Positions 6 through 15,368 are shown, numbered from the stretch's first letter. The stretch is DNA of 15,368 nucleotides from Pseudobacteriovorax sp. (GCA_050293845.1 JBNKNM010000124.1:1-15368), one strand, 5' to 3'. Program-made: numbers and translations. Notes: generated by a model from the sequence alone, not told the origin.

Positions 6-417
6 CTGCAACTTTTTAATTCTTGCAGATAATGGTGAAGAGAGTCATACTGCGCCAGTAAATCGGCTACTGATAGTTGATCTGCAATAATCCAATAGTT
101 GCAGATTTCTCTTTTCACCGGGTACGCTATCTCTCGTTAAAACTGTGCGTTGGTAAAACAGTTACTCTGACGTCCTTGGAGATCTTGATAAAATCAATAA
201 GTAACTTGATTTATTAAACAACTGCAACAATTTAATATTTGCAGCAAGGAAACAGCCAATAATCGAATAAAATATTAGTGTTGCTGCAAAAATATAAAAC
301 TTGCAGCCAGCCAATAATTTTTGCACTCATAGTTTTTCATATACTGAATCGTTTCCATCCCCCAAATTTGGCTAGAGGTACTATTCATATCATGCAGTAA
401 TTATTAAATTGTTGCAG
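6..417. repeat. Cluster of 23-bp CTGCAA-N11-TTGCAG palindromic sites (6-28, 82-104, 222-244, 284-306 perfect; 395-417 with a degenerate left arm)
   Basis: Read directly: ctgcaa-ctttttaattc-ttgcag, ctgcaa-taatccaatag-ttgcag, ctgcaa-caatttaatat-ttgcag, ctgcaa-aaatataaaac-ttgcag, cagtaa-ttattaaattg-ttgcag. The spacer is always 11 nt. Confidence 0.93.
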
Positions 418-428
418 ATTACACTAGG

Positions 429-1097
429 ATGGTTATCAGAACGGATGACGAGAAAAAAGTCAAATAAGTCCTGAGTCTTCTTGATAGTAGTAACCCTCAT
501 GAGGCGTTTTCAGCGATCCAAGGATTGAAAGAAATGTATGGATCTTCGATTAAGGATATTTAAATCTTCAAAAGTAGCTTTGAACAATCATATGTTCCTA
601 GAGACACCCTACTTCTGGATGAGCTTTATAGAGTTAAGAAAGATCTTGAAGTTATGACAAAGAAATTCAATGAGATTAATGAAGAATGGCACAAGTCTTA
701 CAGATCTATAAAAAGGTCAAAGAAATATTATTCAAACAAAGCTGATAAAGCTGAGGAAGAGGCTAGGAATAAACATATTCATAACAATTTCAAAGGTGCA
801 TTAGAAGAAGGTATTACATACGTATTTGGTAATAATATTGCTACCTCTGAAGAAAGAGAACACTTCGTTCCGATGGAATCGGTATATACATTCTTTTAGA
901 CAAAAATTCCGGGTACTAATGCGACAAAAGTCATGTTTTCAAAAGAATTTAGAAAAGTATATGGACTCAAAGCTTGTCGAGGCGGCTACCGTTCGTCGAT
1001 CATGGGAGTGAAGATTACCCCTCACTATATTAAGGATGATGAGGTATTAAATGCATTCTGCTGGAAGAACCTAAGTTATGCTAAGGCTTGCACATAA
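429..1097 (+). pseudogene. Pseudogene of a ~222-codon protein (N-terminus resembles a DUF2786-like helix, then a coiled coil and a possible C-terminal winged helix); three in-frame stops
   Basis: ATG at 429 is in frame with ORF 654-899. The frame reads MVIRTDDEKKVK*VLSLLDSSNPHEAFSAIQGL...SIKDI*IFKS...SVYTFF*TKIPGTNATKVMFSKEFRKVYG...AKACT*. Internal stops are TAA 465, TAA 561 and TAG 897; terminal TAA is 1095-1097; no frameshift is needed. Domain calls are weak, from memory. Confidence 0.7.
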
Positions 1098-1103
1098 GTG
1101 CTG

Positions 1104-1126
1104 CTGCAAGAATTAAATATTTGCAG
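1104..1126. repeat. CTGCAA-N11-TTGCAG site between two convergent genes
   Basis: ctgcaa-gaattaaatat-ttgcag, 6 nt after the stop at 1097 and 12 nt from the stop of the minus-strand ORF at 1139. Confidence 0.92.
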
Positions 1127-1138
1127 ACGAAATCGCTT

Positions 1139-1474
1139 TTAAGTGCTGGTAGTGACCTCCACGAGATTGATATTTTTACCATCCAAAAGATAAACAGTAC
1201 CTTGCTCATCTTTCATTTCGCAGCCAATATATCCTAAAGCTTTGGCACATTCCGCAGTTTTAAACTGAATCCACCAACAGTTTTCGGTATCGATATCGTC
1301 GTAATAATCTTTTTCTATGATTTCATAATAAGATCGTTTTTCGGTAAGCAATAACATTGCATCTTCTTCGTCAATATCCAGATGCTCTTGCACTTGTTTA
1401 ACAATCGGTTCTAGTTTTTTATAACTGTCATGGTGGAAAAGGCTAGCAGCGGATATTAAATCAGATTCTTCTAT
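1139..1474 (-). pseudogene. acrIF11: 5'-truncated AcrIF11-like anti-CRISPR ADP-ribosyltransferase
   Basis: The frame stays open 27 codons upstream of the GTG at 1393 (IEESDLISAASLFHHDSYKKLEPIVKQVQEHLDIDEEDA...) until TAA at 1475-1477. The C-terminus WWIQFKTAECAKALGYIGCEMKDEQGTVYLL matches the recalled AcrIF11 pattern WxxQxxxxxxAxxLGYxxxEMxDExGTxxL. Small and acidic. The N-terminal LFH(G/T)S motif and a start codon are missing. Confidence 0.7.
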
Positions 1475-1477
1475 TTA

Positions 1478-1563
1478 ATACCGGATACCAAAATATAGAA
1501 AAGAGCCTTTGGCTCCGTGTATTGAGTTCTTGCAGACGCATGATCAACCAGAGCTTGATCCAC
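1478..1563 (+). repeat. Collapsed remnant homologous to three separate parts of the 5014-6635 region
   Basis: 1478-1489 equals 5014-5025 (ataccggatacc). 1489-1516 resembles 5069-5097. 1522-1563 matches 6594-6635 at 38/42 nt. Confidence 0.8.
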
Positions 1564-1622
1564 AACTAAAAAATCTCATTTTCAGCTAACGTGGTCCCAT
1601 TCTCAATTAAAACTGTTTAGTA

Positions 1623-1654
1623 AACAATCCGGCCTCTTTTTGAGCCGGATTGTT
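1623..1654. terminator. Hairpin, probable intrinsic terminator
   Basis: aacaatccggc / gccggattgtt perfect 11-bp stem; U-tracts are short. Confidence 0.6.
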
Positions 1655-1867
1655 ATCGCCCGAAGGCATCATAGGTATGATAAAAAGTCATCATCCGCAT
1701 AGTCTAACGGAGTAGTGCTCAACGCCAAATGGCAACAGTATCGTTGCCAAAAGTTGATTTAAGTCAAGTGAGAATTTCGGACTGACCTCGAAATTCCAAG
1801 CGTGATTAAACACATACGACTATAATCTTTTTAAGTTATCAACCTTTTGCATGCATAAAATTTGGTT

Positions 1868-1990
1868 TTATGTTTTAAAAAACTTCTCAAAAATTAGACA
1901 AATTTTAGCGAATGATGCTACAAAACCATATGCACCTGTTATCATTAAAATAAAATTCCAAATGATTTCTAAAATAGATTTGGTAAACAT
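1868..1990 (-). CDS. 40-aa hydrophobic small membrane protein (below ORF-track cutoff)
   Basis: MFTKSILEIIWNFILMITGAYGFVASFAKICLIFEKFFKT*. Purine-rich GAAAGAGAAG 6 nt upstream of the ATG; one long hydrophobic stretch and a basic C-terminus. Confidence 0.55.
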   Translation of the reverse strand: MFTKSILEIIWNFILMITGAYGFVASFAKICLIFEKFFKT

Positions 1991-2075
1991 TATGTACTTC
2001 TCTTTCTTCTAAGAAAGAGGGTCTGTAACTTCTTAGATTTATTTAAGTAAAAACGGTGTACTGAATTTTTTACAC

Positions 2076-2134
2076 TCCTTCGACCGATGACCTAGCTAAC
2101 GCACCTCAAAAATTGAGGGTCATCGGTCGAAGGA
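2076..2134. repeat. Perfect 17-bp GC-rich inverted repeat
   Basis: tccttcgaccgatgacc (2076-2092) / ggtcatcggtcgaagga (2118-2134), 25-nt loop. Confidence 0.9.
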
Positions 2135-2230
2135 TCACAATTCAGGTTTCTAAATAAATTCATATGCTTAGCCTTTTATATATACTAAGAAAGCGAAACT
2201 AAGGAAGTTTTGCCCCTTTCGGGGCTAGGG

Positions 2231-2308
2231 CTATAAAAGCCCTAGCGCGACGAGAAGATTATATATAGCTATTATTATTGAGATAATTGCTAAAATGACT
2301 TCAGTCAT
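2231..2308 (-). CDS. 25-aa hydrophobic micropeptide, type I toxin-like
   Basis: MTEVILAIISIIIAIYNLLVALGLL*. Strong SD (GGAAAGGA) 6 nt upstream. The stop lies within the hairpin ctagggct-tttat-agccctag and is followed by gcccc-gaaa-ggggc. Confidence 0.65.
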   Translation of the reverse strand: MTEVILAIISIIIAIYNLLVALGLL

Positions 2309-2493
2309 GGTAATTCCTTTCCAGCGTTTTTAATTTGGCGCTATTCAAAAAATGTTTACTATTTCTATTTTACAGTAATGCCATACCTAAAATGGCAGAT
2401 ATCACATAAATAAAACGGAATTTGCTCCAATTTTTTACCAACGTCTCTTTGTCTCTATTTTTGAAAATTAATTATGCTGGGCTAAATTAATTA

Positions 2494-2521
2494 TTGAAAA
2501 TTCCGATACGTTTAGTATGAT
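2494..2521 (+). promoter_or_regulatory. Candidate sigma70 promoter for 2555-3381
   Basis: TTGAAA-16nt-TATGAT; SD GGGAGGA at 2541-2547. Confidence 0.45.
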
Positions 2522-2554
2522 TGTTTAAGAGGCGACTCAAGGGAGGAAAGTGTT

Positions 2555-2923
2555 TTGACGGCTGGAATTTTAAGCTCACTACTTTACAACTGGAAAGGTC
2601 AAATTGACCACAACCATGATCAACAGAAGGCTACCAGATATCAAACGGGAATTGACCGAGCCGCGCTCTTAAAAAACGAGCTTCAGCCGTTTGCGATCAA
2701 GGATCTGAAAGAAATAGGTGAACAACAGGTCGCTTTTCTAAACGATCTTGATCAGTACGATCTTGATCCAAGAATGCCACTTTCGGCACGTTTTGAGTAT
2801 GTTTGCGGCTGTAGAACTAACGACAACGAATATGTCGTTTTTGCTTATATATGGTTTGACAGCTTACAAGACGCAAAGAACTATGTCACTAAGCACGGCA
2901 TGAGAATTTTAGGAGGATGGTAA
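2555..2923 (+). CDS. Hypothetical protein, possible toxin of a toxin-first type II TA-like pair
   Basis: 122-aa ORF with TTG start and strong SD, 44 nt upstream of an HTH gene. No recognised motif. Confidence 0.7.
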   Translation: MTAGILSSLLYNWKGQIDHNHDQQKATRYQTGIDRAALLKNELQPFAIKDLKEIGEQQVAFLNDLDQYDLDPRMPLSARFEYVCGCRTNDNEYVVFAYIWFDSLQDAKNYVTKHGMRILGGW

Positions 2924-2967
2924 ACAACTTTTGACATTAAGCAAATTTTTAAGGGGAATATAAAATC

Positions 2968-3381
2968 ATGAGTCACGAAAAAGGAAGCTTTCCAGTCTCC
3001 AGTAGAGTCGGGAAATATAGTATCAACTTTCGGAGCTGTATTGATTCAAATGGCAACTTAGACATGGACAAAGTGATTTCTGCTCAGAGAAACACAGCTA
3101 TAGATATTATTTTAAAAGAGAAGGACCCGACACAATCAGAAAGAAGGGAATATGTTAATTTTTTCTGCAATATTTCAGGACTGAAAGGCAAAAAACTTGC
3201 TCACATGATGCATATTACCACGCCCCAATTAAGCCAGTGGCGTCGAAACGAGGATAAGGATATCTCTAATCAATCTTGGGCGTATATATGCGTGTTCTTC
3301 GGCGACCTGTTTAAAAATGAAGGTAGGGTGACAAACCCATGGTTTAATCAAGACGATAAACCAAAAGTAGCAGATTTATGA
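2968..3381 (+). CDS. Xre-type HTH protein (HigA/MqsA-like layout)
   Basis: GLKGKKLAHMMHITTPQLSQWRR fits an Xre HTH in the C-terminal half; SD AAGGGG upstream. Confidence 0.75.
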   Translation: MSHEKGSFPVSSRVGKYSINFRSCIDSNGNLDMDKVISAQRNTAIDIILKEKDPTQSERREYVNFFCNISGLKGKKLAHMMHITTPQLSQWRRNEDKDISNQSWAYICVFFGDLFKNEGRVTNPWFNQDDKPKVADL

Positions 3382-3400
3382 TGAACAGAGATTCAAAGGT

Positions 3401-3436
3401 AAAAAAAGGATCAATCTTTTTTAAAAGATTGATCCT
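3401..3436. terminator. Intrinsic terminator between convergent genes, strongest for the minus strand
   Basis: aggatcaatctttt / aaaagattgatcct inverted repeat preceded by an A7 tract. Confidence 0.7.
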
Positions 3437-3523
3437 AAATTGGGAAGTTTACCGACAAATCATGGGCAGTTTTCGGTTGATTCAACGGTTATTCAGGGTA
3501 AACCACCTCCCAAGTCGGATGTA

Positions 3524-3907
3524 TTAAACACGTGACTTTTTTGTCTTGCCAGGTGATTTATACCCCATAATTTCACGCTTAATAGCTCCTAACCGCTCAT
3601 AGGAACGCTCAAACCTTTTTCTAGAATCCTCTAAGATTGCCACCGATCCAGAAATTACGGTTTCTACGTCAGTGATTTTTCTAAAAGCTTCGTCCATTGT
3701 TTTCGCATATCGAGCCGGTATAAATCTATAGTCGCCACTATCCAATTCATAAAAAAAGCCTTGTTCATCATCTGTCGAGATGAGCAAACAAGTCGCTCTC
3801 TCAACAGATTTAATTAAAGTAGCTCCGTTACCGTCCTGGAAATTGTGGGTACTTCCAGGAACAATTTTCCTGATATCCTCTGCTTTTATTTTACTTCTAA
3901 GGTTCAC
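3524..3907 (-). CDS. Hypothetical protein
   Basis: 127-aa ORF, GTG start with SD AGAGGGGG, C-terminal coiled-coil-like helix and basic tail. Confidence 0.75.
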   Translation of the reverse strand: MNLRSKIKAEDIRKIVPGSTHNFQDGNGATLIKSVERATCLLISTDDEQGFFYELDSGDYRFIPARYAKTMDEAFRKITDVETVISGSVAILEDSRKRFERSYERLGAIKREIMGYKSPGKTKKSRV

Positions 3908-4130
3908 TTCTGATGCCCCCTCTGTGATAAAGTGTGGAAGTCGAAACGGATTTTTTGAGAAAGTAATATTCGTTAGCAGATATTTTGCTTTTAAAATTCA
4001 AGGATTTACCATTCATAATATATATTATAGTATGTACTAAAATAAATATTATAATATTGCAATTGAGAAATCAATCGCCCTATTCAACTTTCTTTTGTAT
4101 TTTGCGTAAATTATGCATGGTTAACTGAGG

Positions 4131-4361
4131 ATGAGTGGGTCAATGTCGAAGCAAGAACTTCTGGAAGCGTTAAAGGCGTTAGTAAAAAAAAGAGTGGATG
4201 ATGAATTTAATGGTTCGGCTCATAAATTTAGTTTGCACGTAGGAATAAACCCGCGTCATATTGCCAAACTGCTTGATAACCAAGCCAACTTTACACTGAA
4301 TATTTTATATGAAATCTTGGATGCCCTGAAATATGAACTCAAGCTTAGGAAAAAAAAGTAA
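4131..4361 (+). CDS. Small Xre/Cro-type HTH regulator
   Basis: SAHKFSLHVGINPRHIAKLLDNQANFTLNILYEILDALKYELKL is a typical Xre HTH with an NxTL helix; divergent from 3524-3907 across an AT-rich spacer. Confidence 0.8.
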   Translation: MSGSMSKQELLEALKALVKKRVDDEFNGSAHKFSLHVGINPRHIAKLLDNQANFTLNILYEILDALKYELKLRKKK

Positions 4362-4378
4362 TCGGAGGAGAAGTTCAC

Positions 4379-4633
4379 ATGACTGAACATAATGATTATT
4401 CAATACATGGAAAGAAGGGATTCCATCTATCGGCTTTATGTCTCGACTGCGGTCATGAGTACTATCCTCTTTATGAATCCACCATATGCCCACAATGCGA
4501 AAGCATAAGAAAAACCCCAAAATTAACAGCATATAAAAACCCTTGTAAAAGATGTGGAAAAGACTTGTCACCGCTAGAAATAGCTATGGCTGAAGATCTC
4601 GGAAAGACGGGATTTTGTTCTGAATGCTGGTAA
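4379..4633 (+). CDS. Double zinc-ribbon protein
   Basis: Four CxxC motifs (CLDC, CPQC, CKRC, CSEC) in 84 aa; SD GGAGGAG; 17 nt after the HTH gene. Confidence 0.8.
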   Translation: MTEHNDYSIHGKKGFHLSALCLDCGHEYYPLYESTICPQCESIRKTPKLTAYKNPCKRCGKDLSPLEIAMAEDLGKTGFCSECW

Positions 4634-4867
4634 TCTCGCTAGGAGTTCCCATCAGAGAGAGAGAACGCATCAGAAGAAAAGCTAAACGGTGTAAGGGTTG
4701 ATGACAGCTCCATTCGCTATGCGAGTTCTTTCACTCCGTTGCAGAGCTCACCGCTCTAGTAATACCTTAGCACATGCGAACTCATCCCCCACCGCTCATT
4801 GAGCGCCCCCTTTCTAAGGGGGAGGTTGATAAGCCTCACACTTTCGATAATTGAACCCAATCCATGC

Positions 4868-5023
4868 TATATCCGGTATCGCTCGCCCCTATTTTCCGAT
4901 CTCACAACCATCAAGAACCGCCAAGATTTTTTTCGGCTCCCCCGCAAGCGGTTCCCCCCAAAAAAAATCCTGACGAACCTTGCTGCTCGTGAGATTCTTT
5001 TTTAGGGCAAGCGATACCGGATA
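4868..5023. promoter_or_regulatory. Long imperfect hairpin, Frpo/ssi-like single-stranded-DNA promoter
   Basis: Nested arms tatccggtatcgct/agcgataccggata, atctcacaaccatcaag/cttgctgctcgtgagat and caagattttttt/aaaaaaatcctg around a ccgc-aa-gcgg apex. TTGATG-17-TAGGGG on the minus-strand arm faces TTGCTG-17-TAGGGC (4980-5008) on the plus-strand arm. Confidence 0.65.
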
Positions 5024-5069
5024 CCTCAAAGGGTGGGTTAAAGATTTACGAAGTAAAACTAGGCTTATC

Positions 5070-5097
5070 AAAAATAGAGAAGAAGCCTTTCGGCTTC
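5070..5097 (-). terminator. Minus-strand intrinsic terminator-like hairpin
   Basis: Minus strand reads gaagcc-gaaa-ggcttc followed by ttctctattttt. Confidence 0.55.
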
Positions 5098-5167
5098 AGA
5101 TTTTAGAAATGAGGGGCGGCGTCCCGTTTCCTAAAGCGTAAGTCATTGAAATAACTGCATTTTTGTG

Positions 5168-5196
5168 TTGACTAAGAATCTTTTTTGTGAGATATT
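5168..5196 (+). promoter_or_regulatory. Candidate sigma70 promoter for 5276-7893
   Basis: TTGACT-17nt-GATATT with a TG extension; IHF-like taagtcattgaaa just upstream (about 5138-5150). Confidence 0.55.
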
Positions 5197-5275
5197 AGTA
5201 ACATAAAGAAAAAGGCGGGGATGTCGCCAAACATTGACCCCGCCTTAAACAAAAAATGTTTAGGAGATTATTGTC

Positions 5276-7150
5276 ATGAGTGCTAATTTAAGTCAAGTAA
5301 GTCTAGCAGAAATCTATAAGTCGAAAGCATTTGAAGCCTGGTCATTTCTAAAAGAATTAGAAAAACAAATTGAAGAAAAAAAGGACCTTTTAGATTCAAT
5401 TGGCGTTAATTTTATTATCAGTGGTTGCACTAAAGCTAGTGGCACAGAAAGTGGTTTTTCTCAACAACATTTTAGTAATTCAGCTCTTCACATGATGCTT
5501 GAGAAATGCCCCCATATGACCGAGAGTATGGAGCGTGAAATAAAGCGGTGCTTCGAGGCTGATAGCTATAAGAAGCCTACAATTTTTTCAAACCCTGCAC
5601 TTTTCGAAAAAATGCAGCAAGAGATTGAAAGGCAACGCTTTAAAGAAATGCGAGAGGTTATCAATTGGGTCAAAAGAGCAAGGACACCCGACGGGTATAT
5701 GTGGAAGGAAAAGAATTACATAACAATACCTCAAGTCGTGAGGCTTATGGCTACCCCGCAAGTTAGTAAAGGAACTGATCATTGGCGTTGGCGCTTTGAG
5801 AGCGCATACGATAACCTAAGAAAGTTAGAAATTGCTCTATATAGCCTTGACAATCAGAAGCTACCTGATCGGCTTCTTGCCGATGATATTTGTAAAACTT
5901 GGGAAGACGAGTCGAAGATTACTGACTATAAACCAGATGGAATTAAAACCTTTTCTTTTAAAAGTAAATATTTTGAGCTAAGAGCATATAGAAAAGCCCC
6001 CGATCAAATCACTTTTACACCTAAAGCATTGGCTTTACTTAACCAAGAAAAGTATCATTTTAATAAGTCATGGGAACCTCAAAAAACTTGCTCTTTTGAA
6101 CTTAATAGGGAGCAAAAAAAGGCTATTGAGTGGATTAAAAAAAGTCCCGATACCATTAATCGAAAAGTATCTCAGACTGTGCGCGTCGAAGGTGTAACCC
6201 TGGATATTTCTAAAAACCATAACATTGACTTTTTTTCAGACTCAAAAGAATGGCAGAATTTAGCAAATTTGGAGTATGCGCTATACAAATTGTCGGGAAA
6301 AAATTTACCTGACAAGTTTTTAAATGAGCTGATCAAGGAAACCTGGGATATTGAATATAGGGAAGGTAAAAGAGCTATTTATAAAATACCTCCAAAAGAA
6401 AGGAAAGAAAGTATTTTTTTAGCCGCGCTCAAGCTCATTAAAACCATGAATTTTGAAAGTGAGTTCTTTACTTTAAAAATCTATCGAAACTCTACAGGTG
6501 AAATTACTTTTACAGATGAAGCCCTAGAGCTTCTAAATGGCAAAAACGAGACGATAAATGCTGTAGAATCTGAGGCGTTAAATGCTGCAAATGTTGAGTT
6601 CTTGCAGACGCATAATCAACCAGAAATTGACCCACTAAATGAAGTTATAGAGTTTGAAAAACAATGGCTTTTAAGGCGTTCTGAATTAAGGCGTCAAGCT
6701 TGCGACAGACAAGTTGAAAAAATCACTTCTCAAGATCCTAAAATAGTTTCAAAGAGTGAAATATCTAAAGCTCTTGACCTGATAGAATTACGCATTGAAT
6801 CACTCGATGATACTAACAAGTTGTCTGATAAAAGCGAGAGGCTTTTAAAAGCTAAAGTCGCGCAAGACGAAGCCATAAAGAAGCAAGAAGCTAAACCAAA
6901 AATTGTTATCGATTTCTCAAAAAAGGAAGGCTTTATTGTTTACGGATCAACTAGAGAAATTAGTCAGGATCTAGGGCGAAAAGGTTTAGGTCTAGCTTAT
7001 TGGGGTCTCAAAAAATTGTGGTATATTCGAGGTTCCAAAGGAAAGCCATGGTCCGCTAATTACCAGCGGTTTATTGATGGACTCGAAAGGGTTTGTAATA
7101 AAAACGGCATGACATTAGATAACAAAATAAAACTGGCTGAAGCAGCCTAG
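5276..7150 (+). CDS. 624-aa leading-region protein with two tandem DUF4942-like domains
   Basis: SD AGGAG. Internal repeat DNLRKLEIALYSLDNQKLPD...FKSKYFELRAYRKAPDQITFTPKALALLN vs QNLANLEYALYKLSGKNLPD...FESEFFTLKIYRNSTGEITFTDEALELLN. Resembles the recalled DUF4942 C-terminal pattern F.S.YF.I+.FK.G.GHITF....L...LN. The family call is tentative. Confidence 0.85.
   Translation: MSANLSQVSLAEIYKSKAFEAWSFLKELEKQIEEKKDLLDSIGVNFIISGCTKASGTESGFSQQHFSNSALHMMLEKCPHMTESMEREIKRCFEADSYKKPTIFSNPALFEKMQQEIERQRFKEMREVINWVKRARTPDGYMWKEKNYITIPQVVRLMATPQVSKGTDHWRWRFESAYDNLRKLEIALYSLDNQKLPDRLLADDICKTWEDESKITDYKPDGIKTFSFKSKYFELRAYRKAPDQITFTPKALALLNQEKYHFNKSWEPQKTCSFELNREQKKAIEWIKKSPDTINRKVSQTVRVEGVTLDISKNHNIDFFSDSKEWQNLANLEYALYKLSGKNLPDKFLNELIKETWDIEYREGKRAIYKIPPKERKESIFLAALKLIKTMNFESEFFTLKIYRNSTGEITFTDEALELLNGKNETINAVESEALNAANVEFLQTHNQPEIDPLNEVIEFEKQWLLRRSELRRQACDRQVEKITSQDPKIVSKSEISKALDLIELRIESLDDTNKLSDKSERLLKAKVAQDEAIKKQEAKPKIVIDFSKKEGFIVYGSTREISQDLGRKGLGLAYWGLKKLWYIRGSKGKPWSANYQRFIDGLERVCNKNGMTLDNKIKLAEAA
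6585..6607. repeat. CTGCAA-N11-TTGCAG site embedded in the 624-aa CDS
   Basis: ctgcaa-atgttgagttc-ttgcag, located in the linker after the second repeat domain. Confidence 0.88.
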
Positions 7151-7167
7151 GCAAAGGATCAATTCTA

Positions 7168-7893
7168 ATGGGTGATTTTTCTAAATGCGATGAGTTAAAA
7201 GCGGAGCTTGACGGGCTCCGCCCGATTGAACAAAAGCACATGAAAGATATTAAGTCTTTTTGGCAAATTGGCCTTGCTTATTCCTCAAATGCTTTAGAGG
7301 GTAATACCCTCACTGAGACCGAGACCAAGGTAATCTTAGAGGATGGCATAACTGTCGGCGGAAAATCCGTCAGGGAGCATATGGAAGCGCTTGGTCATAG
7401 GGATGCGCTAAGCTATCTATTTACTGCTTGTTCTGGTGGTTACAATGAGAAGGTCATCTGTGAGCTACATCGATTGTTTTACTTTAGAATCGACGAGAAT
7501 AATGCTGGTGCATATCGTCGAGAAAATGTCATCATCACTGGGACCAACTATCTACCTCCAGATTCCGATGATGTACCTAACTTAATGAGCAAGTTTTGTA
7601 ACTATGATAAAAGTCAACATCCAATTGAACATGCTGCGCTTGCACATCAGGAGTTAGTTAATATCCATCCATTTGTTGATGGTAATGGGAGAACTGCTAG
7701 GCTTCTCATGAATCTCATTTTGCTTGGAAATGGCTACCCAATTATTGTAATTCCTCCGATATATAGAGGTAGGTATATTGATGCAGCTAAGGCTGGGAAT
7801 TTAGGCGATCCTCTGCCTTTTCGAGAGTTCCTCGCTCAAGTGGTTGAACAAGGATTGATAGACTATTTAAGAATGCTCAAAAAACTGAAATAA
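7168..7893 (+). CDS. fic: Fic-domain AMP transferase, class II
   Basis: Canonical active-site motif HPFVDGNGRTAR plus N-terminal autoinhibitory motif SNALEG, matching (S/T)xxxE(G/N). Confidence 0.96.
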   Translation: MGDFSKCDELKAELDGLRPIEQKHMKDIKSFWQIGLAYSSNALEGNTLTETETKVILEDGITVGGKSVREHMEALGHRDALSYLFTACSGGYNEKVICELHRLFYFRIDENNAGAYRRENVIITGTNYLPPDSDDVPNLMSKFCNYDKSQHPIEHAALAHQELVNIHPFVDGNGRTARLLMNLILLGNGYPIIVIPPIYRGRYIDAAKAGNLGDPLPFREFLAQVVEQGLIDYLRMLKKLK

Positions 7894-7996
7894 AGGCACT
7901 ATCAAGGGAGCTTTGTCAGGTTGTTTTGGCAGGGGCGTTAAAGATGGCTCACATCGCAGGCTCAAGCCTGCTCAGATCACCATGAATAGCCGAGCC

Positions 7997-8353
7997 TTAG
8001 AGTCGGTTTGCAAGAGCTTTGATCACCTCGCTTAAGTCTGAGTTGTTTGATTTTTTCATAGACTTATCAGCAATGTCCCAAGCTGCTATTGGTAGTGATA
8101 GATTTACCTTTTTAATTTCGTTGGGTTCTACTTTAAACGTAAAACCATTTGAACCTTCTTCTAGGAGGAGATGCGTAACAACATCAGATAAGCTTAGGCC
8201 GTCCTTGCCGCCATTTTTTGCTAGATAGTCCTCAAGAATTCTTAAGGTTTTTGAATCTAGGTCAAGCTCTTTATCAACAATTTTTGTTAGAGCCATAGGG
8301 CTAGATTTCTTGGGAGACTTTGTTACTTTCTTTTTAGGTTTATTAACAGCCAT
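7997..8353 (-). CDS. Putative tandem ribbon-helix-helix DNA-binding protein
   Basis: Likely start is the ATG at 8353 (SD GAGG, 1 nt after the upstream stop). Two RHH-like units: LDLDSKTLRILEDYL...SLSDVVTHLL and VNLSLPIAAWDIADKSM...DLSEVIKALA. Confidence 0.7.
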   Translation of the reverse strand: MAVNKPKKKVTKSPKKSSPMALTKIVDKELDLDSKTLRILEDYLAKNGGKDGLSLSDVVTHLLLEEGSNGFTFKVEPNEIKKVNLSLPIAAWDIADKSMKKSNNSDLSEVIKALANRL

Positions 8354-8354
8354 T

Positions 8355-9224
8355 CTATACCTCAATTTTTGATTTTTCAGTTGTTAATATTCTGCCTAAT
8401 ATGGCAAGCGCCAGTCTAGCCTTTTTGTCGTCAGAAATGCCAGTCTTTTTTATATTTTTTGACTCATTCACCTGTCCTTTAATAGGATCGATAACTACTA
8501 TGCCATGGATCACTTTTGGGATTGGATCAGTTGCCTTAATGATTCCAATAACATAGTCATACAACTCATCGGGTGCCTCATCAAATTTCTGTGTTTTTAC
8601 ACCAATCATAATTGGCTTTTCGTCTGGATCAGGTAGGATCACAATTGCGTCAACTTTCAGATTTTCAGGGATAGATGTTAGTATTTTTTGAGGCCCTGGC
8701 TCTGTCCCAATAATTTCCCTAAAATCTAGTCGATGGAGCCTCCCAAAAACCTCGATTGGGTTCAAGTTTTCCCTTTTGGCTCTCCTTAGCTCTTTGGCAA
8801 CCTTCTGAACTTCTGTTACGCTTATCTTGCCCTCAAGATATTCGCTCTCAATGGCTTCAACATATTCAGGCTCAACTTTCATTTTTTCGATGGTTACAAA
8901 GGAATCCAAGGCAGAGGCAGATAGCTCTCCAATTTCCTCAGAAATTTCGACGAAAGAATTTGTGTTTTGAGGATTTTTTTTGTTCCAAATTTCTACCATT
9001 TTTTTTCCAGCTCTGTAGTTCAGCCAGAGGGAACTTTCGCTCACCTCAATATCTTTGGCTAAACCCTTAACCCATCTTGTAAATGACGGAGTATTCTTTT
9101 TGCTGCGCCAAAGCTCATTTTTCTCAACTTCGAGCATCTTTTCGGCGATATTTTGCCAGCGCTTTTTACCTTCTTTCGCCGCTTTTGCAATTTGAATCTC
9201 ATATTCCTCAATATTACTAGCCAT
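8355..9224 (-). CDS. Putative DNA-binding protein: N-terminal HTH and possible degenerate nuclease-fold C-terminal domain
   Basis: Likely start is the ATG at 9224 (SD GAAAGGAAGG). LW...SFTRWVKGLAKDIEVSESSLWLNYRAG is HTH-like. The C-terminal VDAIVI...IMIGVKT recalls a PD-(D/E)xK fold lacking the acidic residue. First gene left of oriT. Confidence 0.8.
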   Translation of the reverse strand: MASNIEEYEIQIAKAAKEGKKRWQNIAEKMLEVEKNELWRSKKNTPSFTRWVKGLAKDIEVSESSLWLNYRAGKKMVEIWNKKNPQNTNSFVEISEEIGELSASALDSFVTIEKMKVEPEYVEAIESEYLEGKISVTEVQKVAKELRRAKRENLNPIEVFGRLHRLDFREIIGTEPGPQKILTSIPENLKVDAIVILPDPDEKPIMIGVKTQKFDEAPDELYDYVIGIIKATDPIPKVIHGIVVIDPIKGQVNESKNIKKTGISDDKKARLALAILGRILTTEKSKIEV

Positions 9225-9240
9225 ATACAGCCTTCCTTTC

Positions 9241-9363
9241 ATACCAATATTTGTAGTATATTATAATTTAGAGCACTCCAATATTTGGAGTTATAATATA
9301 AATAATTCTATATTATATGGTAATTAACCACTCCAAAATTTGTAGTATAACAATATTTGTAGT
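9241..9363. promoter_or_regulatory. Four 17-bp palindromic boxes (consensus ACTCCAATATTTGKAGT): operator or centromere-like
   Basis: ataccaatatttgtagt 9241-9257; actccaatatttggagt 9275-9291; actccaaaatttgtagt 9330-9346; ataacaatatttgtagt 9347-9363. Confidence 0.85.
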
Positions 9364-9776
9364 GATGGTTTTCATCTCTGGAATTTGCCTTGTTGGTCCC
9401 GTAGCGGCCTCGGCTCCGAGTGGGCTAGGATTGGAGAAATCCTAAGAACCGATCATGTGGTTTCGCTATAGAACTTTTCCCATGTCCATGGACGTAATTG
9501 AAAAAGTTCTATGGGCTAGGCGTCATATTGTTAAAGCCTGTACCCCAAGATTTCCATTTGCACAAAGAATACTCCTCGTTGTCAACTAAATTGCCTGAAG
9601 CAATTTAGCCATGTGTGCAATCTCCCCCTGCTGACCGCATGTGTCTTACTCTCTTTAGGAGAGTAGTAGACGGTTGCGTCATATTATTTTTTTCCAACCC
9701 AAAGCTACGCATCCAAAGGATGCTACGCAGCTCGCCTTCGTCTCGCTCACACACTCCGCCACTAAAGAGACTTAAT

Positions 9777-9973
9777 TCTGTGTATAATCAGATTTCATCT
9801 GTGTATCATCAGATATATGGTTTAAATCTCTGTTAATCAAGAATATTTCGATATGAACATATCTTTCTTGAAGTCAAGACTAATTCTGTTTATAATTAGA
9901 AACATCATTGGTATGATAAATATAATGATTATGTTAATGATATTATTAATATAATTATCTGATAATCATCAGA
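9777..9973. repeat. Four 16-bp TCTG-N8-YAGA repeats, probable relaxosome accessory protein binding sites
   Basis: tctgtgtataatcaga 9777-9792; tctgtgtatcatcaga 9798-9813; tctgtttataattaga 9885-9900; tctgataatcatcaga 9958-9973. Confidence 0.8.
9868..9896 (+). promoter_or_regulatory. sigma70 promoter of the mobilisation operon
   Basis: TTGAAG-17nt-TATAAT; the -10 hexamer lies inside the third 16-bp repeat. Confidence 0.7.
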
Positions 9974-9989
9974 TACAAATGGAGAATAT

Positions 9990-10307
9990 ATGACGACTAA
10001 ATCAATCTATTTTTCCATTGAAATGGATGAGAAAAAAGAGCTTGAGATGACAGCAAAAAATCTTGGAATCAAGCCATCAGAATTGGCTCGTAGAAGATAC
10101 CGACAAGGCAAGCTTATGCAGTCTAGTTCTGGTCTGTCTGATGGACTCCTAGAGTATCTAGTTAAACTATCTACTTTTCAGTATGCAGCGCTTGAAAAAA
10201 TCATCAACCAGAGGCCAGACAATTTCGAGTCTGTTATGATTCGAGGTGCTGAGCTTTACTCAGAAGCATTAAGACTTGTAGAAAGTTCAAAAAACATGGA
10301 GAGTTAG
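9990..10307 (+). CDS. TrwA-like relaxosome accessory protein (RHH)
   Basis: KSIYFSIEMDEKKELEMTAKNLGIKPSELARR fits a beta-helix-helix RHH. First gene before the coupling protein and relaxase; SD GGAG. Confidence 0.75.
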   Translation: MTTKSIYFSIEMDEKKELEMTAKNLGIKPSELARRRYRQGKLMQSSSGLSDGLLEYLVKLSTFQYAALEKIINQRPDNFESVMIRGAELYSEALRLVESSKNMES

Positions 10308-10310
10308 TTT

Positions 10311-12056
10311 GTGGATGAAGGAAAACAAATATCAACTCGCTCGTACTTTAAATCAGTTAGACACAATCTAAGAATCGTGTTCTTGACTTATGTTATAGCT
10401 CTTCTGATTCTTCTTTTCAGGGTCTATCTTTTATGGCCTGAAAATCAACTGCCAATGACTAAGGGGCTTTCTATTAATCCTCTTCTTGTAGCAAAGATCA
10501 CTAACGCACTTCTCTTGTCAATCCCATTATCTGGGGGCTTGTCATTGGTCGTTTTTGGCGTCTTTGAACTCCTTGCAGATCGTACTATGAAGCCTCGATA
10601 CCTGTCTGGCTCTAAGAGAGTAAGTCTAGCGGAACTTTCGAAGAAAATTGATTCCTCGAAGGAGTACGATTTTAGAAGAAGTGATTCAGATATAAATCTT
10701 GATCTTATTGACCCCAATCTATCTGGTAATAAGTCCAAAGTATCTATTAGATTTCCAGCCCAGCTTGGTGCAGGTCATAACCTGTATCTTGGGGTTTCAG
10801 GTGCAGGAAAGTCTCAGCTCATGGAAGCTGGATTTGAAGAGGTTAGGCACTGTGGGAATAAATGTATAATTGTGGACCCTGGTGGGCGATATTACGAGAA
10901 ATTTGGCCGCAAGGAAGACGTTATCTTATCCCTTTATGATAGACGCAGTGAGCTTATTGATTTTTGGGCTGAAGATGCAAGCCCAGATGAGATTGCAAGC
11001 TCTATTATTGAGGAAAGGGAGAATGGCACAGGGGCAGATCAATTTTACTCCCTTTCACCGCGCGCAGTGTTTTCTGGCTTGATGGACGCCTCATCTTCGA
11101 CAGTGGAGATGTGGCAGCTTTTAAAATCTATGGATATTACGAGGATTAGGAGCCTCCTTCAGGAGATAGAATCGATGGGCGCAAATATGCTTCTTGCCCG
11201 CGAGACAGCGGGCAATGTTATGACCTCGCTATCTGTGAAAATGTCCTGGCTAAAGCATATCAATCACTGGCCTATTCAGAGGGGAAAGACAGAGCCTTTT
11301 CTACTATCTAGATGGGCTAGAGATGATAGCGATACGCGCTGGGTTTTCCTTGTTTCAAGAGAGCGTGATTGGAGTTTTACAAAGCACATTATCCGGGTCT
11401 GGTTTGATCTTGTCTCAAATTCTATCTTTGGGAGAAATTTTGAAGAATCCAAAGCTAAGAGAGTCGTTGCTGGATGTGATGAGATTTCTACGATTGGTAA
11501 GCTAGAAAGTCTCCCTAAGATCCTTGATAAGGGAAGAAAGGATGGCTACCATCTTTGGGCTGGACTTCAGGATGTCGCTCAGTTCTATTCAGCCTACGGA
11601 ATCCAGGACGGAAAAAATATCATTAATGGGTTTCACAACAGATTTCTTTTTCGCGGAAATGGCCAGGATCTACTATCCTTGATGGAAGAAAGCTGTGGGG
11701 AAGGTCGTTGGTTAAAAAAGATTGAGCAAATTGATGCTCGTGGTGAGAAAAGCTTGTCAGTTTCAGAGAAGGCAATTAGGCCGTTTATAAAAGATGACTT
11801 TCTTAATATACCAAACCTTAGGTTTGTCGTTAAGCTTGCGACAATGAACCCTGCTTTGGCTCAGATTGAGCATGTAAATAGGCCAAGCATTAACCCTGCT
11901 GATAAGAGTGAAATACCAAGACCCAAGAAGAAAGAAACGGGAAGCGATGCTGCTCCTTTGAAAACCAGTAAAAACGATAGTAAAGCTAAGAGTGAAAGCA
12001 CTGTTAATGACGAGGGTGGATCTTCAGATGAAGAGATCCCCATTTGGGAGGATTAG
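10311..12056 (+). CDS. traD: Type IV coupling protein, TrwB/TraD family
   Basis: Two N-terminal transmembrane segments, Walker A GVSGAGKS, IIVDPGG, Walker B VVAGCDE, K-G-R-K and GLQDVAQ motifs; directly precedes the relaxase. Confidence 0.93.
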   Translation: MDEGKQISTRSYFKSVRHNLRIVFLTYVIALLILLFRVYLLWPENQLPMTKGLSINPLLVAKITNALLLSIPLSGGLSLVVFGVFELLADRTMKPRYLSGSKRVSLAELSKKIDSSKEYDFRRSDSDINLDLIDPNLSGNKSKVSIRFPAQLGAGHNLYLGVSGAGKSQLMEAGFEEVRHCGNKCIIVDPGGRYYEKFGRKEDVILSLYDRRSELIDFWAEDASPDEIASSIIEERENGTGADQFYSLSPRAVFSGLMDASSSTVEMWQLLKSMDITRIRSLLQEIESMGANMLLARETAGNVMTSLSVKMSWLKHINHWPIQRGKTEPFLLSRWARDDSDTRWVFLVSRERDWSFTKHIIRVWFDLVSNSIFGRNFEESKAKRVVAGCDEISTIGKLESLPKILDKGRKDGYHLWAGLQDVAQFYSAYGIQDGKNIINGFHNRFLFRGNGQDLLSLMEESCGEGRWLKKIEQIDARGEKSLSVSEKAIRPFIKDDFLNIPNLRFVVKLATMNPALAQIEHVNRPSINPADKSEIPRPKKKETGSDAAPLKTSKNDSKAKSESTVNDEGGSSDEEIPIWED

Positions 12057-12062
12057 CATAAG

Positions 12063-15000: not shown

Positions 15001-15368
15001 CGGGAGCTGTTGTCACTGTTCTTGAAGTGGATGAAAACCGTGGCAGTATCCTAGTCGATGCTGGATCAGCTAAGCGCTATCATCTATCGAGTGATAGAAT
15101 GCAGTATTTTTCTTTCGGCTATGTGAGCACAGTTGACTCAGTTCAGGGCAAGACGACTTCAAAAGGGATCGTTTTGGCAGATTCTTTGTATGACAAAGAG
15201 TCTATCAATGTCGCAGCCACAAGGGCTAAAGAGGATCTAGTTGTTTACACCGAGGACAAAAGCTCCCTTTACCCGCAAATTGATCACCAAGGCCGAAATC
15301 TCACCTCTCATGAGGTGATCGAGGCATTTGACTACAAGCGTTCCACTGGAAATTTGAAAAATAAGGAC
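12063..15368 (+). CDS. traI: MOBF relaxase-helicase, TrwC/TraI family (3'-partial, at least 1102 codons)
   Basis: MLSVSRVTVSQGLEYYKRDNYY (two tyrosine pairs), DLTFSAPKSIS, HDTSRAKDPQLHTH (HUH), FSKR. RecD-like helicase motifs GVAGAGKT (14037), IIDEAGM, VGDERQ, QGKT and NVAATRA. The frame is open to the window end. Confidence 0.97.
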   Translation, partial: MLSVSRVTVSQGLEYYKRDNYYTKDGAIANSEWYGQGAEEVGFHGKIKEKPFDKLLFGSLPDGTSIRMKKESDAQKKDPKKKRTEALKERAGTDLTFSAPKSISLKAFLGEDIRLIEAHKEAVRAALDVVQNRYIATRVGGQVDRRLEYTENMIVAQFHHDTSRAKDPQLHTHNILFNGTKAEAGWRSVYDDIFRNRSKDIGVIYQNELARRVLDLGYEIVRNENGTFELKGYSRDDILYFSKRHSEIMEQGAVTKKQERLAVLKTREAKEYELDRGLLWKRHRIEGEKIGLRHPIANSGKALRLEPKTPADFVELSISHLSRKNVAFTKEEIETTALSFSLGLYDTSQIHLAVEAKIGSRLIRAQKKTIDPSLDTLKHELERFKENGYQDAIYSKLAELKNASLRPVYDELNILALRERDNGSLEPIRASSEGILSSRHLLHLAKVDKESLSRFGMVSRLQAGYESQKIRGISGNGISLKEFFYSINGLKSHDNYYEFLKKDYPSQAGEIWVIDKVEKIRSSYLRQILEKAEREKARVVFLGGDERIDAIAQFKPFGNLDAKRMEDIVKTEHSNFNLRLTQEEFTTKFAQETERKILDFVERGKGKFQPVVSEDMAKDFVNKKADNLSVASGFSLTEGQRQALEVTLSTEDQFHRWRGVAGAGKTTSMNILREQFEFKGYKVRGFAPTGDAALNLSKEAKIKDFGTVASLIRSKSNEDRSKGNELWIIDEAGMLSNEDKLRLAEKASIENARVLLVGDERQNSSIGAGNPFYLSKRSNINTALLEQTLRPKSQYMKEVFNDAMQLNAQEAIKTIDRHGKLIEIKDINARLDRVAKDYVESGPDTLVICKTNLEKGSITQKIRYKLIEGGSLGDEKISFVGLSPVDKSEDQLKFSFHYQLGQVLVPFENRGRLTKGLRYTVSEIRENSLVVRSEFGNAITVKPDALKVQLFNQNQMDLRAGDRLRWTKIHNDDYGEKRNTGAVVTVLEVDENRGSILVDAGSAKRYHLSSDRMQYFSFGYVSTVDSVQGKTTSKGIVLADSLYDKESINVAATRAKEDLVVYTEDKSSLYPQIDHQGRNLTSHEVIEAFDYKRSTGNLKNKD

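Follow-up and report, generated by a model that had tools for sequence, protein, structure and literature searches.

CTGCAA-N10/11-TTGCAG dyads recur on a contig of Pseudobacteriovorax sp. (GCA_050293845.1 JBNKNM010000124.1:1-15368) and elsewhere in the same genome, and we tentatively consider them as crossover or junction sites of a putative site-directed DNA-exchange system, a possibility drawn from sequence comparison which we prefer without calling it probable. The window analysed is this one contig at its full length (C124; 15,368 bp), and the genome (G000) comprises 6.7 Mb. The dyads constitute a family with a polarity, are restricted to ca. 296 kb of mobile-looking contigs and occur as identical sites in unrelated flanks; their flanks are re-assorted and assembly break points are enriched at them.

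The CTGCAA dyad family

The first-pass annotation of the window had reported six perfect CTGCAA-N11-TTGCAG copies, far more than allowed by chance. All six were confirmed (6, 82, 222, 284, 1104 and 6585; sites A to E and the others are listed in Table 1), compared to a mean of 0.01, and none of 200 dinucleotide shuffles reached this number. When up to two mismatches are allowed, the window contains nine matches versus 0.78 expected; they include 395-417, and two of them, at 3836 and 5595, are probably due to chance. Of two further copies described as one-armed, that at 1513 indeed retains only the right arm, whereas that at 395 is degenerate rather than one-armed, with two mismatches in the left arm.

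In the genome, 33 exact N11 sites face one in the reversed control, and a scan of spacer lengths revealed a second class of 12 exact-arm sites at N10; other lengths gave 0–2 sites, except N18 with seven (one AT-rich), and everted controls 0–6. The exact AT-rich sites number 43 and are distributed over 23 contigs totalling 295,757 bp. With at most one mismatch and at least 70% A+T inside, 73 sites are obtained versus four in the reversed sequence; of these, 15 with one mismatch are located within long genes of the chromosome and are probably due to chance. The half-site logo reads K-CTGCAA-n-W-W-T-T, the full site being a dyad of 22–25 bp with strictly conserved hexamers as arms, 16–17 bp apart, around an AT-rich centre. 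The spacer, previously taken as asymmetric, is not free but an AT-rich near-palindrome, nWWTT(n)AAWWn, and only a weak polarity remains of the asymmetry. Some copies have longer arms (e.g. 12 bp at C12:64306). Inner position 7 lacks complementarity between the halves and the inner positions do not covary. A target-site duplication is not visible; the flanking T...A or G...C merely extends the dyad. The site at 6585 falls outside the refined pattern CTGCAANWNTNNNANWNTTGCAG.

This refined pattern has 28 hits in the genome and one across 130 other genomes of the phylum, and the 60 nearest relatives contain 0–3 plain matches each, whose spacers are not AT-rich in all listed matches except one (G039). 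All scans of sequence collections used N11 patterns. A double-site pattern retrieved 13 stretches from genome_contigs, all of them unrelated GC-rich or other repeats; a strict pattern, estimated to catch ca. 40% of the N11 sites of this genome, gave 67 single-site stretches in metagenome_contigs, the exception being a contig on which two identical sites are separated by 933 bp, and all were taken as chance; and none of the 78 stretches found in IMG/VR with the refined pattern contains a second site. No analogous intergenic palindrome family was detected in 19 loci from the phylum, of which nine belong to recombinase homologues and ten are regions of at most 20 kb, and a literature search by motif returned nothing relevant. 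The CTGCAA motif is new, and the family is known from one genome lineage only. With the N11 patterns applied, the three collections yielded no further genome or contig in which such sites cluster.

Repeats of other kinds were seen in the surveyed loci. Downstream of a related MOBF relaxase gene, L219 (G117:C7) contains at 5475-6505 five AACTCG(C/A)GCA-N5-TGCGCGAGTT palindromes inside a 588-aa open reading frame (ORF), and they were rejected as an analogue of the CTGCAA site because they represent a coding repeat. Pinibacter and Chitinophagaceae loci (L043, L045, L046, L048, L049, L051 and L053-L055) share an unrelated repeat of ca. 100 bp, with several loci per genome, in which a small hairpin is enclosed by two others that are GC-rich, CTGCAAGGCT-nnn-AGCCTTGCAG.

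Polarity of the sites

In the optimal orientation one inner half is mostly (A/C)T and the other GA. Position 7 is occupied by A16 C9 G2 T1 on one half versus G18 C6 T3 A1 on the other, and position 8 by T26 A2 versus A20 T8. For 28 unique sites, the asymmetry score amounts to 57.4 compared to 43.0 ± 6.1 for a null of re-paired halves, 0.7% of the nulls being as high, and after an over-aggressive merge to eight families p is 0.13. At inner position 8, 16 of 21 context groups are heterotypic (A paired with T) versus 9.9 expected (chi-square 7.95, p = 0.0048). The polarity is weak but significant, and the term "directional" is retained in this weaker form. The orientations assigned earlier agree for seven of the eight window sites, site 284 being ambiguous. 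The alternation of orientations along the window concerns three sites only, 395(+), 1104(−) and 1513(+), and elsewhere neighbouring pairs show mixed relative orientations.

Identical sites in unrelated flanks

Twenty-eight site pairs are identical over the full 22/23 bp. Both flanks are unrelated in seven of them, one flank is shared in six and both in six, and nine are cut by a contig end; the underlying flank comparison is anchored and ungapped and under-calls gapped homology, e.g. between C124:6 and C229:355. In pairs such as C131/C377, C332/C633 and C221:7823/C229:355, both flanks are unrelated from the first bases onwards, while only ca. 0.2 chance-identical pairs are expected among unconnected loci, as roughly estimated from position frequencies. 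The 23-mer of site A recurs at C229:355, C221:7823, C324:5325 and C593:3, and that of site B at C229:431 and C229:714; the paralogous copies of site C (C221:31, C229:574 and C442:2564) all lie within a conserved block.

Neighbouring sequences are also found in different combinations around the same site. The conserved core around site 1104, whose left extension consists of a stop codon plus GTGCTG and whose right extension is ACGAAATCGCTTTTA, is flanked by L1-R1 in the window, by L1-R2 in C214 and C439 and by L2-R2 in C291. The N10 site ATTTTAATTC combines the arm pairs 9/50 (C404), 9/6 (C663:145) and 5/6 (C97); a fourth, 5/50-like pair (C663:198) is weak, extending over 7 nt only. The T-type and GA-type inner halves of this site each stay with their own arm, and the flanks diverge at the edge of the dyad. 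In site D the inner 11 bp are flipped relative to the shared left flank, as compared to C221:95 and C229:638, and the homology between C124 and C229 stops at 289, within the left arm of this site.

Assembly branch points accumulate at the dyads. Twelve of the 43 exact sites are found no farther than 150 bp from a contig end, compared to 2.3% (ca. 1) expected, and one 29-bp sequence, which holds site A, terminates C124, C324 and C593 alike. Read depths were taken from contigs of public runs, of which X1 and X2 originate from one study. In both, region 1-1141 has a depth 2–5 times that of the backbone 1112-14867 (in X1 87.5, 70.9 and 33 versus 16.9), and their contigs diverge at 107, 247, 284, 1092, 1126 and 1141, each 0–15 nt from a site edge. 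Parts of the window are uncovered in X3 and X4, and "skips" at 237-280 and 385-425 reflect a diverged paralogue; neither observation was used as evidence. Operators that evolve independently hardly account for the identity at variable inner positions between unrelated flanks, for the re-assorted arms or for the assembly branch points; these three observations fit exchange sites or self-copied sites.

Placement, cargo and arrays

According to a crude gene caller based on codon usage, from which all gene contexts are derived, 40 of the 43 exact sites are intergenic and the remaining three lie in weak small ORFs. Among the 20 sites with a neighbour called on both sides, eight are located between two 5' ends, five between two 3' ends, five in 3'/5' and two in 5'/3' contexts. 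These eight divergent, five convergent and seven tandem contexts imply no preference for promoters. Several sites precede start codons by 10–60 nt, and others are found at convergent 3' ends, often just past stop codons.

The cargo beside the sites is mixed and comprises defence, anti-defence, toxin-immunity, toxin-antitoxin, UmuDC and receiver-domain classes. Represented are genes for a cytochrome b561, a PT-TG toxin with its Imm45 immunity protein, a Cys/Met pyridoxal-phosphate enzyme, a nucleotidyltransferase and a GNAT protein, furthermore SIR2 together with an LmuB-like gene, an OLD/AriA-like ATPase, UmuDC, PIN-Phd and IS91-like genes. Genes for receiver-only response regulators adjoin sites in three contexts (C16:43142-43513, C324:4763-5194 and C12:63244-63705). 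Remnants of the umuC 3' end of 120 and 178 bp adjoin a 1104-type site in C214 and C439, and two resolvase 5' remnants lie 69–120 bp from a CTGCAA site. Modules consisting of a single gene between sites include the 429 gene and the AcrIF11 fragment of the window and the receiver gene C16:43142-43513, whose module spans C16:42882-43574. A 3.4-kb stretch at C221:4159-7611 is free of sites and carries five ORFs on both strands.

Other sites form gene-free arrays, as A-B-C-D-E in the window (6-417), C229:355-736 and nine sites at C16:42882-44352; C663 contains two inverted identical copies 53 bp apart. Of 16 adjacent pairs, 11 are spaced within 0.15 turn of an integer number of helical turns (binomial p = 0.0016, Rayleigh p ca. 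0.025), four paralogous duplicate pairs (C229:355, 574 and 638; C221:31) having been left out of this calculation, and nine of the 16 combine one N10 with one N11 site. The A-B and C-D blocks are conserved among C124, C229, C221 and C442 with 73–98% identity (84% between C124 and C229) and with intact arms. Since the paralogous arrays diverged while their arms remained intact, the sites appear to be under selection in place, and the phased conserved arrays point to a protein occupying several sites along the same side of the helix.

Two of the site-bearing contigs show further features. C16 combines P2-like tail genes (tape measure, gpU, gpD-like and collagen-like fibre; 23700-43500) with a plasmid-type KfrA-ParA-ParB-HU block (51200-55000) and may represent a phage-plasmid or a plasmid-borne tailocin. 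The ends of C229 (1-83 and 8380-8462) are mutual 83-bp inverted repeats of 97.6% identity.

Candidate proteins

Among the candidates examined, an effector protein was not found for any reading of the sites. In C16, a gene for a helix-turn-helix (HTH)-coiled-coil protein is followed by a one-mismatch site at 51868 and the genes for KfrA (PF11740, 86.5 bits), ParA, a ParB/KorB-like protein and, later, HU. This ParB is associated with its own 19-bp palindrome, GTGTTGGGTAACCCAACAC, which has exactly two copies in the genome, one just before parA (C16:52957) and one inside parB (54682). Its homologues in G057, G069 and G012 (45–51% identity) are accompanied by a covarying TGTYG-N7-CRACA palindrome in each fetched locus, and GTGTTGGGTAACCCAACAC is probably the parS of the ParB subfamily. 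Other ParB_N genes (C136, C162 and C63) reside on site-free contigs. A parS or KorB-like operator, named in the first-pass annotation as the main alternative to recombination, is thus disfavoured, as the only ParB on a site-bearing contig possesses its own covarying parS-like palindrome. KfrA was rejected as binder, both kfrA copies sharing TAGTATTT-N3-AAATACTA ca. 45–65 bp upstream of the ATG and a CTGCAA-type site being present upstream of one only. KfrA of RK2 reportedly binds a 24-nt imperfect palindrome and that of RA3 9-bp repeats (PMC7783346).

A tyrosine recombinase encoded at C221:2833-3792 matches the XerD-like profile with 112.8 bits (cut-off 329.6) and that of integron integrases, TIGR02249, with 45.4 bits (cut-off 265), and a pair of N10 and N11 sites is located 300–345 bp upstream of its gene. 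The 343-aa neighbour of this recombinase has no sequence match in the PDB and no similarity to the recombinase, and its structure model is unusable (mean predicted local distance difference test score 34.1). A dif-like type of site, ACATAA-N6-TTATGT, occurs upstream of two of nine loci of recombinase homologues (G063 and G003). Its genomic copies, with perfect arms of up to 9 bp, are found at C221:3822, C16:51176 and C25:14377 (L017, L221 and L029) compared to none in the reversed control, all three on contigs which also carry CTGCAA sites.

The genome yields 22 Phage_integrase, 5 Resolvase, 23 Y1_Tnp and 24 IS240-type hits. None of the Y1_Tnp hits is flanked by sites, one fragment lying on a site-bearing contig 1.75 kb from a site. 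The ends of IS6/IS26-type elements, considered for their TTGCAA-like termini, were discarded because those of the local IS6 family differ from the site; sigma-54 and LexA-box readings were rejected on spacing relative to the consensus sequences, and a res site of the Tn3-family/serine-resolvase type because no two or three dyad subsites are present beside the four full-length resolvase genes. Among 38 further small ORFs near sites, one DNA-binding hit was obtained, a weak winged-helix match (E = 0.0045). Candidate binders are the HTH-coiled-coil proteins encoded at C16:51212-51850, C405:1282-1950 and C332:3463-4128, a 79-aa winged-helix-like ORF at C221:4458-4697, the C221 recombinase and the C163 resolvase.

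Genes and further features of the window

The left part of the window lies on the leading side of a MOBF relaxase/coupling protein/origin-of-transfer (oriT) block, as previously stated; by the usual MOBF layout the left 9 kb may be regarded as leading region. The stretch 9243-9989, which is gene-poor and has its own repeats, is the likely oriT. Two 26-bp direct repeats (9244-9358) immediately adjoin the upstream side of gene 8355-9242 on the minus strand, and the NikA-like gene is preceded by three 19-bp palindromes of the ATCTG-N9-CAGAT type (9776-9975); the first gene adjoining oriT has its own, different repeats. PLSDB holds no close DNA match for the window, and the type IV coupling protein (T4CP) is at most 27% identical to any PLSDB homologue. 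The element is remote from known plasmids, and its plasmid lineage is poorly sampled. No recombinase domain was detected among the 15 window ORFs scanned, in agreement with the earlier statement.

Table 1. Sites and coding features of the window. PWM, position weight matrix score.
Feature	Position	Strand	Score or source	Remarks
Site A, exact N11 dyad CTGCAA-CTTTTTAATTC-TTGCAG	6..28		PWM 36.0	contig begins 5 nt earlier
Site B, exact N11 dyad	82..104		PWM 30.2	76 bp centre-to-centre from A
Site C, exact N11 dyad	222..244		PWM 33.6	
Site D, exact N11 dyad	284..306			62 bp from C
Site E, degenerate	395..417		PWM 17.5 (right half 16.8)	left arm CAGTAA with 2 mismatches, right half intact
Module 1, 222-codon frame	429..1097	+		bracketed by sites E and 1104; in-frame stops TAA 465, TAA 561, TAG 897
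Exact N11 site	1104-1126			within 53-bp conserved core 1089..1141
Module 2, AcrIF11-family fragment	1139..1393	-	NF052490, 65.4 bits	between site 1104 and one-armed 1513 copy
One-armed copy	1513..1535			right arm TTGCAG only; left CTCCGT matches 3/6
DUF4942 protein	5276-7150		Pfam	
Exact-arm site inside DUF4942 gene	6585..6607		PWM 24.7, lowest of the window's six exact sites	atypical inner ATGTTGAGTTC
Fic	7168-7893		Pfam	
NikA-like accessory protein, weak	9990-10307		Pfam	
TrwB-type coupling protein (T4CP)	10311-12056		Pfam	
TrwC/MOBF relaxase	from 12063		Pfam	

The bracketing of the 429-1097 frame is as had been noted: 11 nt separate the end of site 395-417 from the ATG at 429, and the stop codon 1095-1097 precedes site 1104 by 6 nt. 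In this assembly, however, the frame is interrupted by the three in-frame stops. The single homologue of its product, P0002 (89% identity), which is encoded on an NCBI contig of 15,093 bp, retains the third stop only, and contigs of X1 and X2 at ca. 4 times the backbone depth read sense at stops 465, 561 and 897 (T>A, A>T and T>A). A DUF2786-like N-terminus of the frame (atlas score 0.85) constitutes a lead only. As binder of the sites the product was rejected, being without a family match and having one homologue and the DUF2786 lead only. On the other side of site 1104, the minus-strand ORF 1139-1393 ends 12 nt beyond the site. Its match spans positions 75-141 of the 142 of the NF052490 profile, which identifies it as a 5'-truncated AcrIF11 fragment; the family assignment made previously is maintained, with a match to the C-terminal half of the profile. 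The 1513 copy belongs to a 42-bp repeat of 90% identity (repeat family D3) between 1522-1563 and 6594-6635, the flank of the 6585 site.

A promoter-like site is predicted at 167-194, from which a 5' leader of the 429 gene would extend across sites C, D and E, with A and B preceding this leader. The one terminator-like site within 1-1700 is away from any dyad, and no Rfam family matches the window. Most leading-region genes at 2555-7893 have no site upstream. The N-terminus of the DUF4942 protein gave no informative match in PDB and PADLOC. Within a stretch of ca. 1 kb without a convincing ORF (1564-2555), a perfect inverted repeat, with arms of 17 bp and a loop of 25 nt, is found at 2076-2134. 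In X1, the 3' part of the relaxase gene (14838-15368) reaches ca. 2.4 times the depth of the backbone, and in X1, X2 and X4 it continues upstream in an alternative way, which suggests that a second related relaxase-bearing element is present in the samples.

A possible exchange mechanism and its alternatives

For the exchange system we propose a first scenario. The dyads would be recognition sites of one sequence-specific protein and mark junctions of gene modules in plasmid and phage-like DNA. A putative recombinase or other site-directed strand-exchange enzyme might bind both hexamers and use the polar AT-rich core. Successive exchanges would keep the site and re-assort its left and right neighbours among co-resident elements, and the closely spaced, helically phased copies might serve as accessory or landing-pad sites. 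We infer here that a protein binds the dyads, that exchange would be site-specific as opposed to short-homology recombination and that the process may be ongoing. The full version of the scenario is somewhat unlikely, namely that a dedicated enzyme, neither Xer nor integron integrase, swaps defence, anti-defence, toxin and regulatory modules among the conjugative plasmids and phage-like elements of one host, with the phased arrays as landing pads.

Several observations weigh against exchange at the sites. The gene-free arrays of four to nine sites with spacings of 41–76 bp are unlike cassettes; with their phasing, they resemble an array for protein binding rather than the boundaries of cassettes. 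Both N10 and N11 forms exist, which is unusual for crossover sites. The polarity is unrelated to neighbouring gene ends, the A-type half being turned to a 5' end in 10 cases and to a 3' end in 6, the T-type half in 11 and 9, respectively, on the basis of crude gene calls. Several breakpoints of homology are found 15–80 bp off the dyad or within genes, and flank homologies stop 8–80 bp from it; C124 and C214 diverge 15 bp past it, exactly at the stop codon of AcrIF11. Many breaks away from sites are indicated by the differing extent of umuC at its 3' end (120 bp, 178 bp or full length) and by 5' remnants of the C163 resolvase of 71 codons (C214:8774-8989, 91%) and 21 codons (C221:4228-4290, 81%). 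The ends of the run contigs constitute weak evidence because any conserved island produces them, and contigs cannot show rare junctions. On the side of the enzymes, the C221 recombinase gene has a perfect 9-6-9 dif-like site, ACATAA-N6-TTATGT, ca. 30 bp upstream of its start; no CTGCAA dyad (score of at least 12) lies within 1.5 kb of the four full-length resolvase genes, one weak N13 match scoring 11.1; and none of the integrase, resolvase, Y1_Tnp and IS240-type hits of the genome consistently adjoins sites. No related element was found in the genomes or collections searched. Altogether, the phased gene-free arrays, the N10/N11 tolerance and the lack of an enzyme among the candidates agree better with a binding-site array than with the boundary of a cassette. 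The cassette-recombination idea put forward in the first-pass annotation finds partial support in the directional family at module boundaries, the re-assorted flanks and the break-point enrichment, but no recombinase is tied to the sites, many sites form gene-free arrays and several break points lie off the dyad.

Such an array is the core of an explanation that is nearly as likely as exchange and, taken by itself, doubtful as well: the dyads might serve as scattered operators or roadblocks for a dimeric DNA-binding protein which is encoded by the mobilome and silences or insulates accessory modules, with short-homology exchange at the sites as a secondary effect. The dyad symmetry with strict hexamers 16–17 bp apart around an AT-rich centre supports this reading, and the helical phasing (11 of 16 pairs, p = 0.0016) and the arrays upstream of genes, with arms intact in paralogues of 75–85% identity, point in the same direction. 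The promoter-like site 167-194 would place C, D and E into the leader of the 429 gene, and several other sites stand 10–60 nt before start codons. The density of ca. one site per 7 kb (43 in 296 kb) is near that of KorB operators on RK2, a plasmid of roughly 60 kb with 12 of them. Models would be a global repressor such as ArdK/StbA of R388, KorA/KorB of IncP plasmids or the protein bound to mycobacteriophage stoperators, with R388 (PMC3937220) and the L5-type repressor (PMC9283540) as precedents. However, no regulator was found, the 38 small ORFs providing one weak winged-helix match, and KfrA, ParB and the first gene by oriT each have their own different repeats. Five of 20 classifiable sites are situated between convergent 3' ends, and most leading-region genes at 2555-7893 are devoid of an upstream site. 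Moreover, the variable inner positions are identical in unrelated flanks, which is unexpected for independently evolving operators, and the polarity is, unlike in stoperators, uncorrelated with gene direction.

The identical copies in unrelated flanks would also suit a selfish palindrome, comparable to a repetitive extragenic palindrome (REP), a bacterial interspersed mosaic element (BIME) or a miniature inverted-repeat transposable element, which is copied into intergenic mobile-element DNA as a short dyad (35–53 bp in some subfamilies) and acts as a passive hot spot for rearrangement or template switching. This idea appears improbable, notwithstanding the extragenic positions regardless of gene direction and often just past stop codons, the pairs and arrays including the inverted identical copies of C663 53 bp apart, the lineage-specific occurrence and the longer arms of some copies. 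A loop would tolerate both N10 and N11 more readily than a crossover region, and the inner segment of site D is flipped between the arms as in hairpin loops. Against it, the family is confined to 23 contigs (296 kb) of the 6.7-Mb genome, no gene of the REP-associated tyrosine transposase (RAYT) type is flanked by sites, target-site duplications are not visible and the site is unlike the local IS6-type ends. It is not a hairpin that is conserved, since inner position 7 lacks complementarity between the halves, and the arms are under purifying selection in the paralogous arrays. Even less can be said for structure in the single strand, by which the arrays would fold in the transferred strand as Frpo- or ssi-like hairpin promoters or priming signals, or as RNA hairpins, and which we consider very improbable. 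Region 1-430 does fold better as single-stranded DNA than shuffled sequences on both strands (z = −5.06 and −4.55; none of 100 shuffles as good), and the array is located upstream of plus-strand leading-region genes that, judged by the relaxase orientation, are possibly transcribed from the incoming strand. But any palindrome array gives a low energy; each stem is made up of 6 bp and some weak A-T pairs only, conservation concerns the sequence of the hexamers and not just their pairing, the inner positions do not covary, sites also occur beside phage-like tail genes and 3' ends of unrelated genes, Rfam gave no match and the lone terminator-like site in 1-1700 is not at a dyad. Most improbable is a parS centromere or KorB-type operator of the element's ParB. 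The C16 order of HTH-coiled-coil gene, site 51868, KfrA, ParA, ParB and HU resembles an IncP-like control region, and dispersed positions would suit a sliding ParB clamp; against this stand the 19-bp palindrome of the C16 ParB at parAB, the covarying TGTYG-N7-CRACA of its homologues and the absence of sites from the contigs with the ParB_N genes C136, C162 and C63. To our knowledge, a 6-10/11-6 architecture is unlike known parS or OB sites.

If site-directed exchange is true, the dyads would add a third principle to the site-bounded shuffling of genes represented by integron cassettes and Xer-dependent dif modules. This principle would apply to the leading region of a conjugative plasmid and to cargo for defence and anti-defence, for which quick re-assortment is most important, and its site is simple and searchable. 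If the dyads are operators instead, they would define a regulon of ca. 50 sites under a putative master regulator of a poorly sampled plasmid lineage. On either reading the motif is a direct handle for finding the binding protein, and the occurrence in a single lineage limits the generality of both.

Comparison with known systems

Networks of plasmid operators share part of the layout. In R388, ArdK represses five maintenance-region promoters and StbA overlaps ArdK (PMC3937220). As for ArdK/StbA/KorA of R388 and KorA/KorB/KfrA of IncP plasmids (PMC7783346), a short dyad is repeated here across maintenance and leading-region DNA of a MOBF/TrwC-type backbone. A KfrA-ParA-ParB block as in IncP-type networks is present in the same mobilome. 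Unlike in these networks, no regulator was found, KfrA and ParB have other palindromes, sites extend beyond promoters and inner positions are identical in unrelated flanks. The stoperators of Cluster A mycobacteriophages are likewise short polar sites, occurring by the dozen in short intergenic spaces and partly near stop codons; the L5-type repressor binds more than 20 sites including them (PMC9283540). They are asymmetric 13-mers bound by a monomer with an orientation that follows transcription, whereas the CTGCAA sites are dyads whose polarity is unrelated to gene direction.

REP/BIME elements with RAYT transposases and the PeSL promoter/stem-loop cassettes of T4-type phages combine short extragenic palindromes, arrays and module shuffling. 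The CTGCAA family resembles them by extragenic palindromes which occur singly and in arrays, by identical copies between unrelated genes and by its tie to module shuffling, but it is not genome-wide, has no site-flanked RAYT and carries no consistent promoter or terminator on the dyad. As with attC/attI of integrons, sites are found directly behind stop codons of unrelated cargo, and the C221 tyrosine recombinase gene is divergent from a site pair. In contrast to integrons, this recombinase scores far below the TIGR02249 cut-off, the CTGCAA sites measure 22–23 bp and arrays are free of ORFs; the attC core is GTTRRRY, and the CTGCAA sites are without such a core. Membership in the integrons was rejected, as no integron-type integrase stands by an array and the layout of one attC per co-oriented cassette is replaced by ORF-free arrays of four to nine sites.

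The pdif sites or dif modules of Acinetobacter plasmids, which are XerC/XerD-dependent, offer further parallels, i.e. many short dyads in plasmid accessory regions, bracketed modules of one to few genes, shuffling between replicons and no need of a module-borne recombinase (PMC13141974, PMC6449649, PMC9947245). However, the CTGCAA site with its 6-10/11-6 layout and conserved outer hexamers is not a 28-bp 11-6-11 dif look-alike composed of XerC arm, 6-bp centre and XerD arm, and the genome holds separate dif-like ACATAA-N6-TTATGT sites in three copies. We know of no pdif sites with gene-free phased arrays or mixed N10/N11 forms. As at least one defining feature of each is lacking, the family falls outside the pdif, integron, parS/OB, KfrA operator, REP/RAYT, stoperator and res classes; in kind, it is closest to site-bounded module shuffling.

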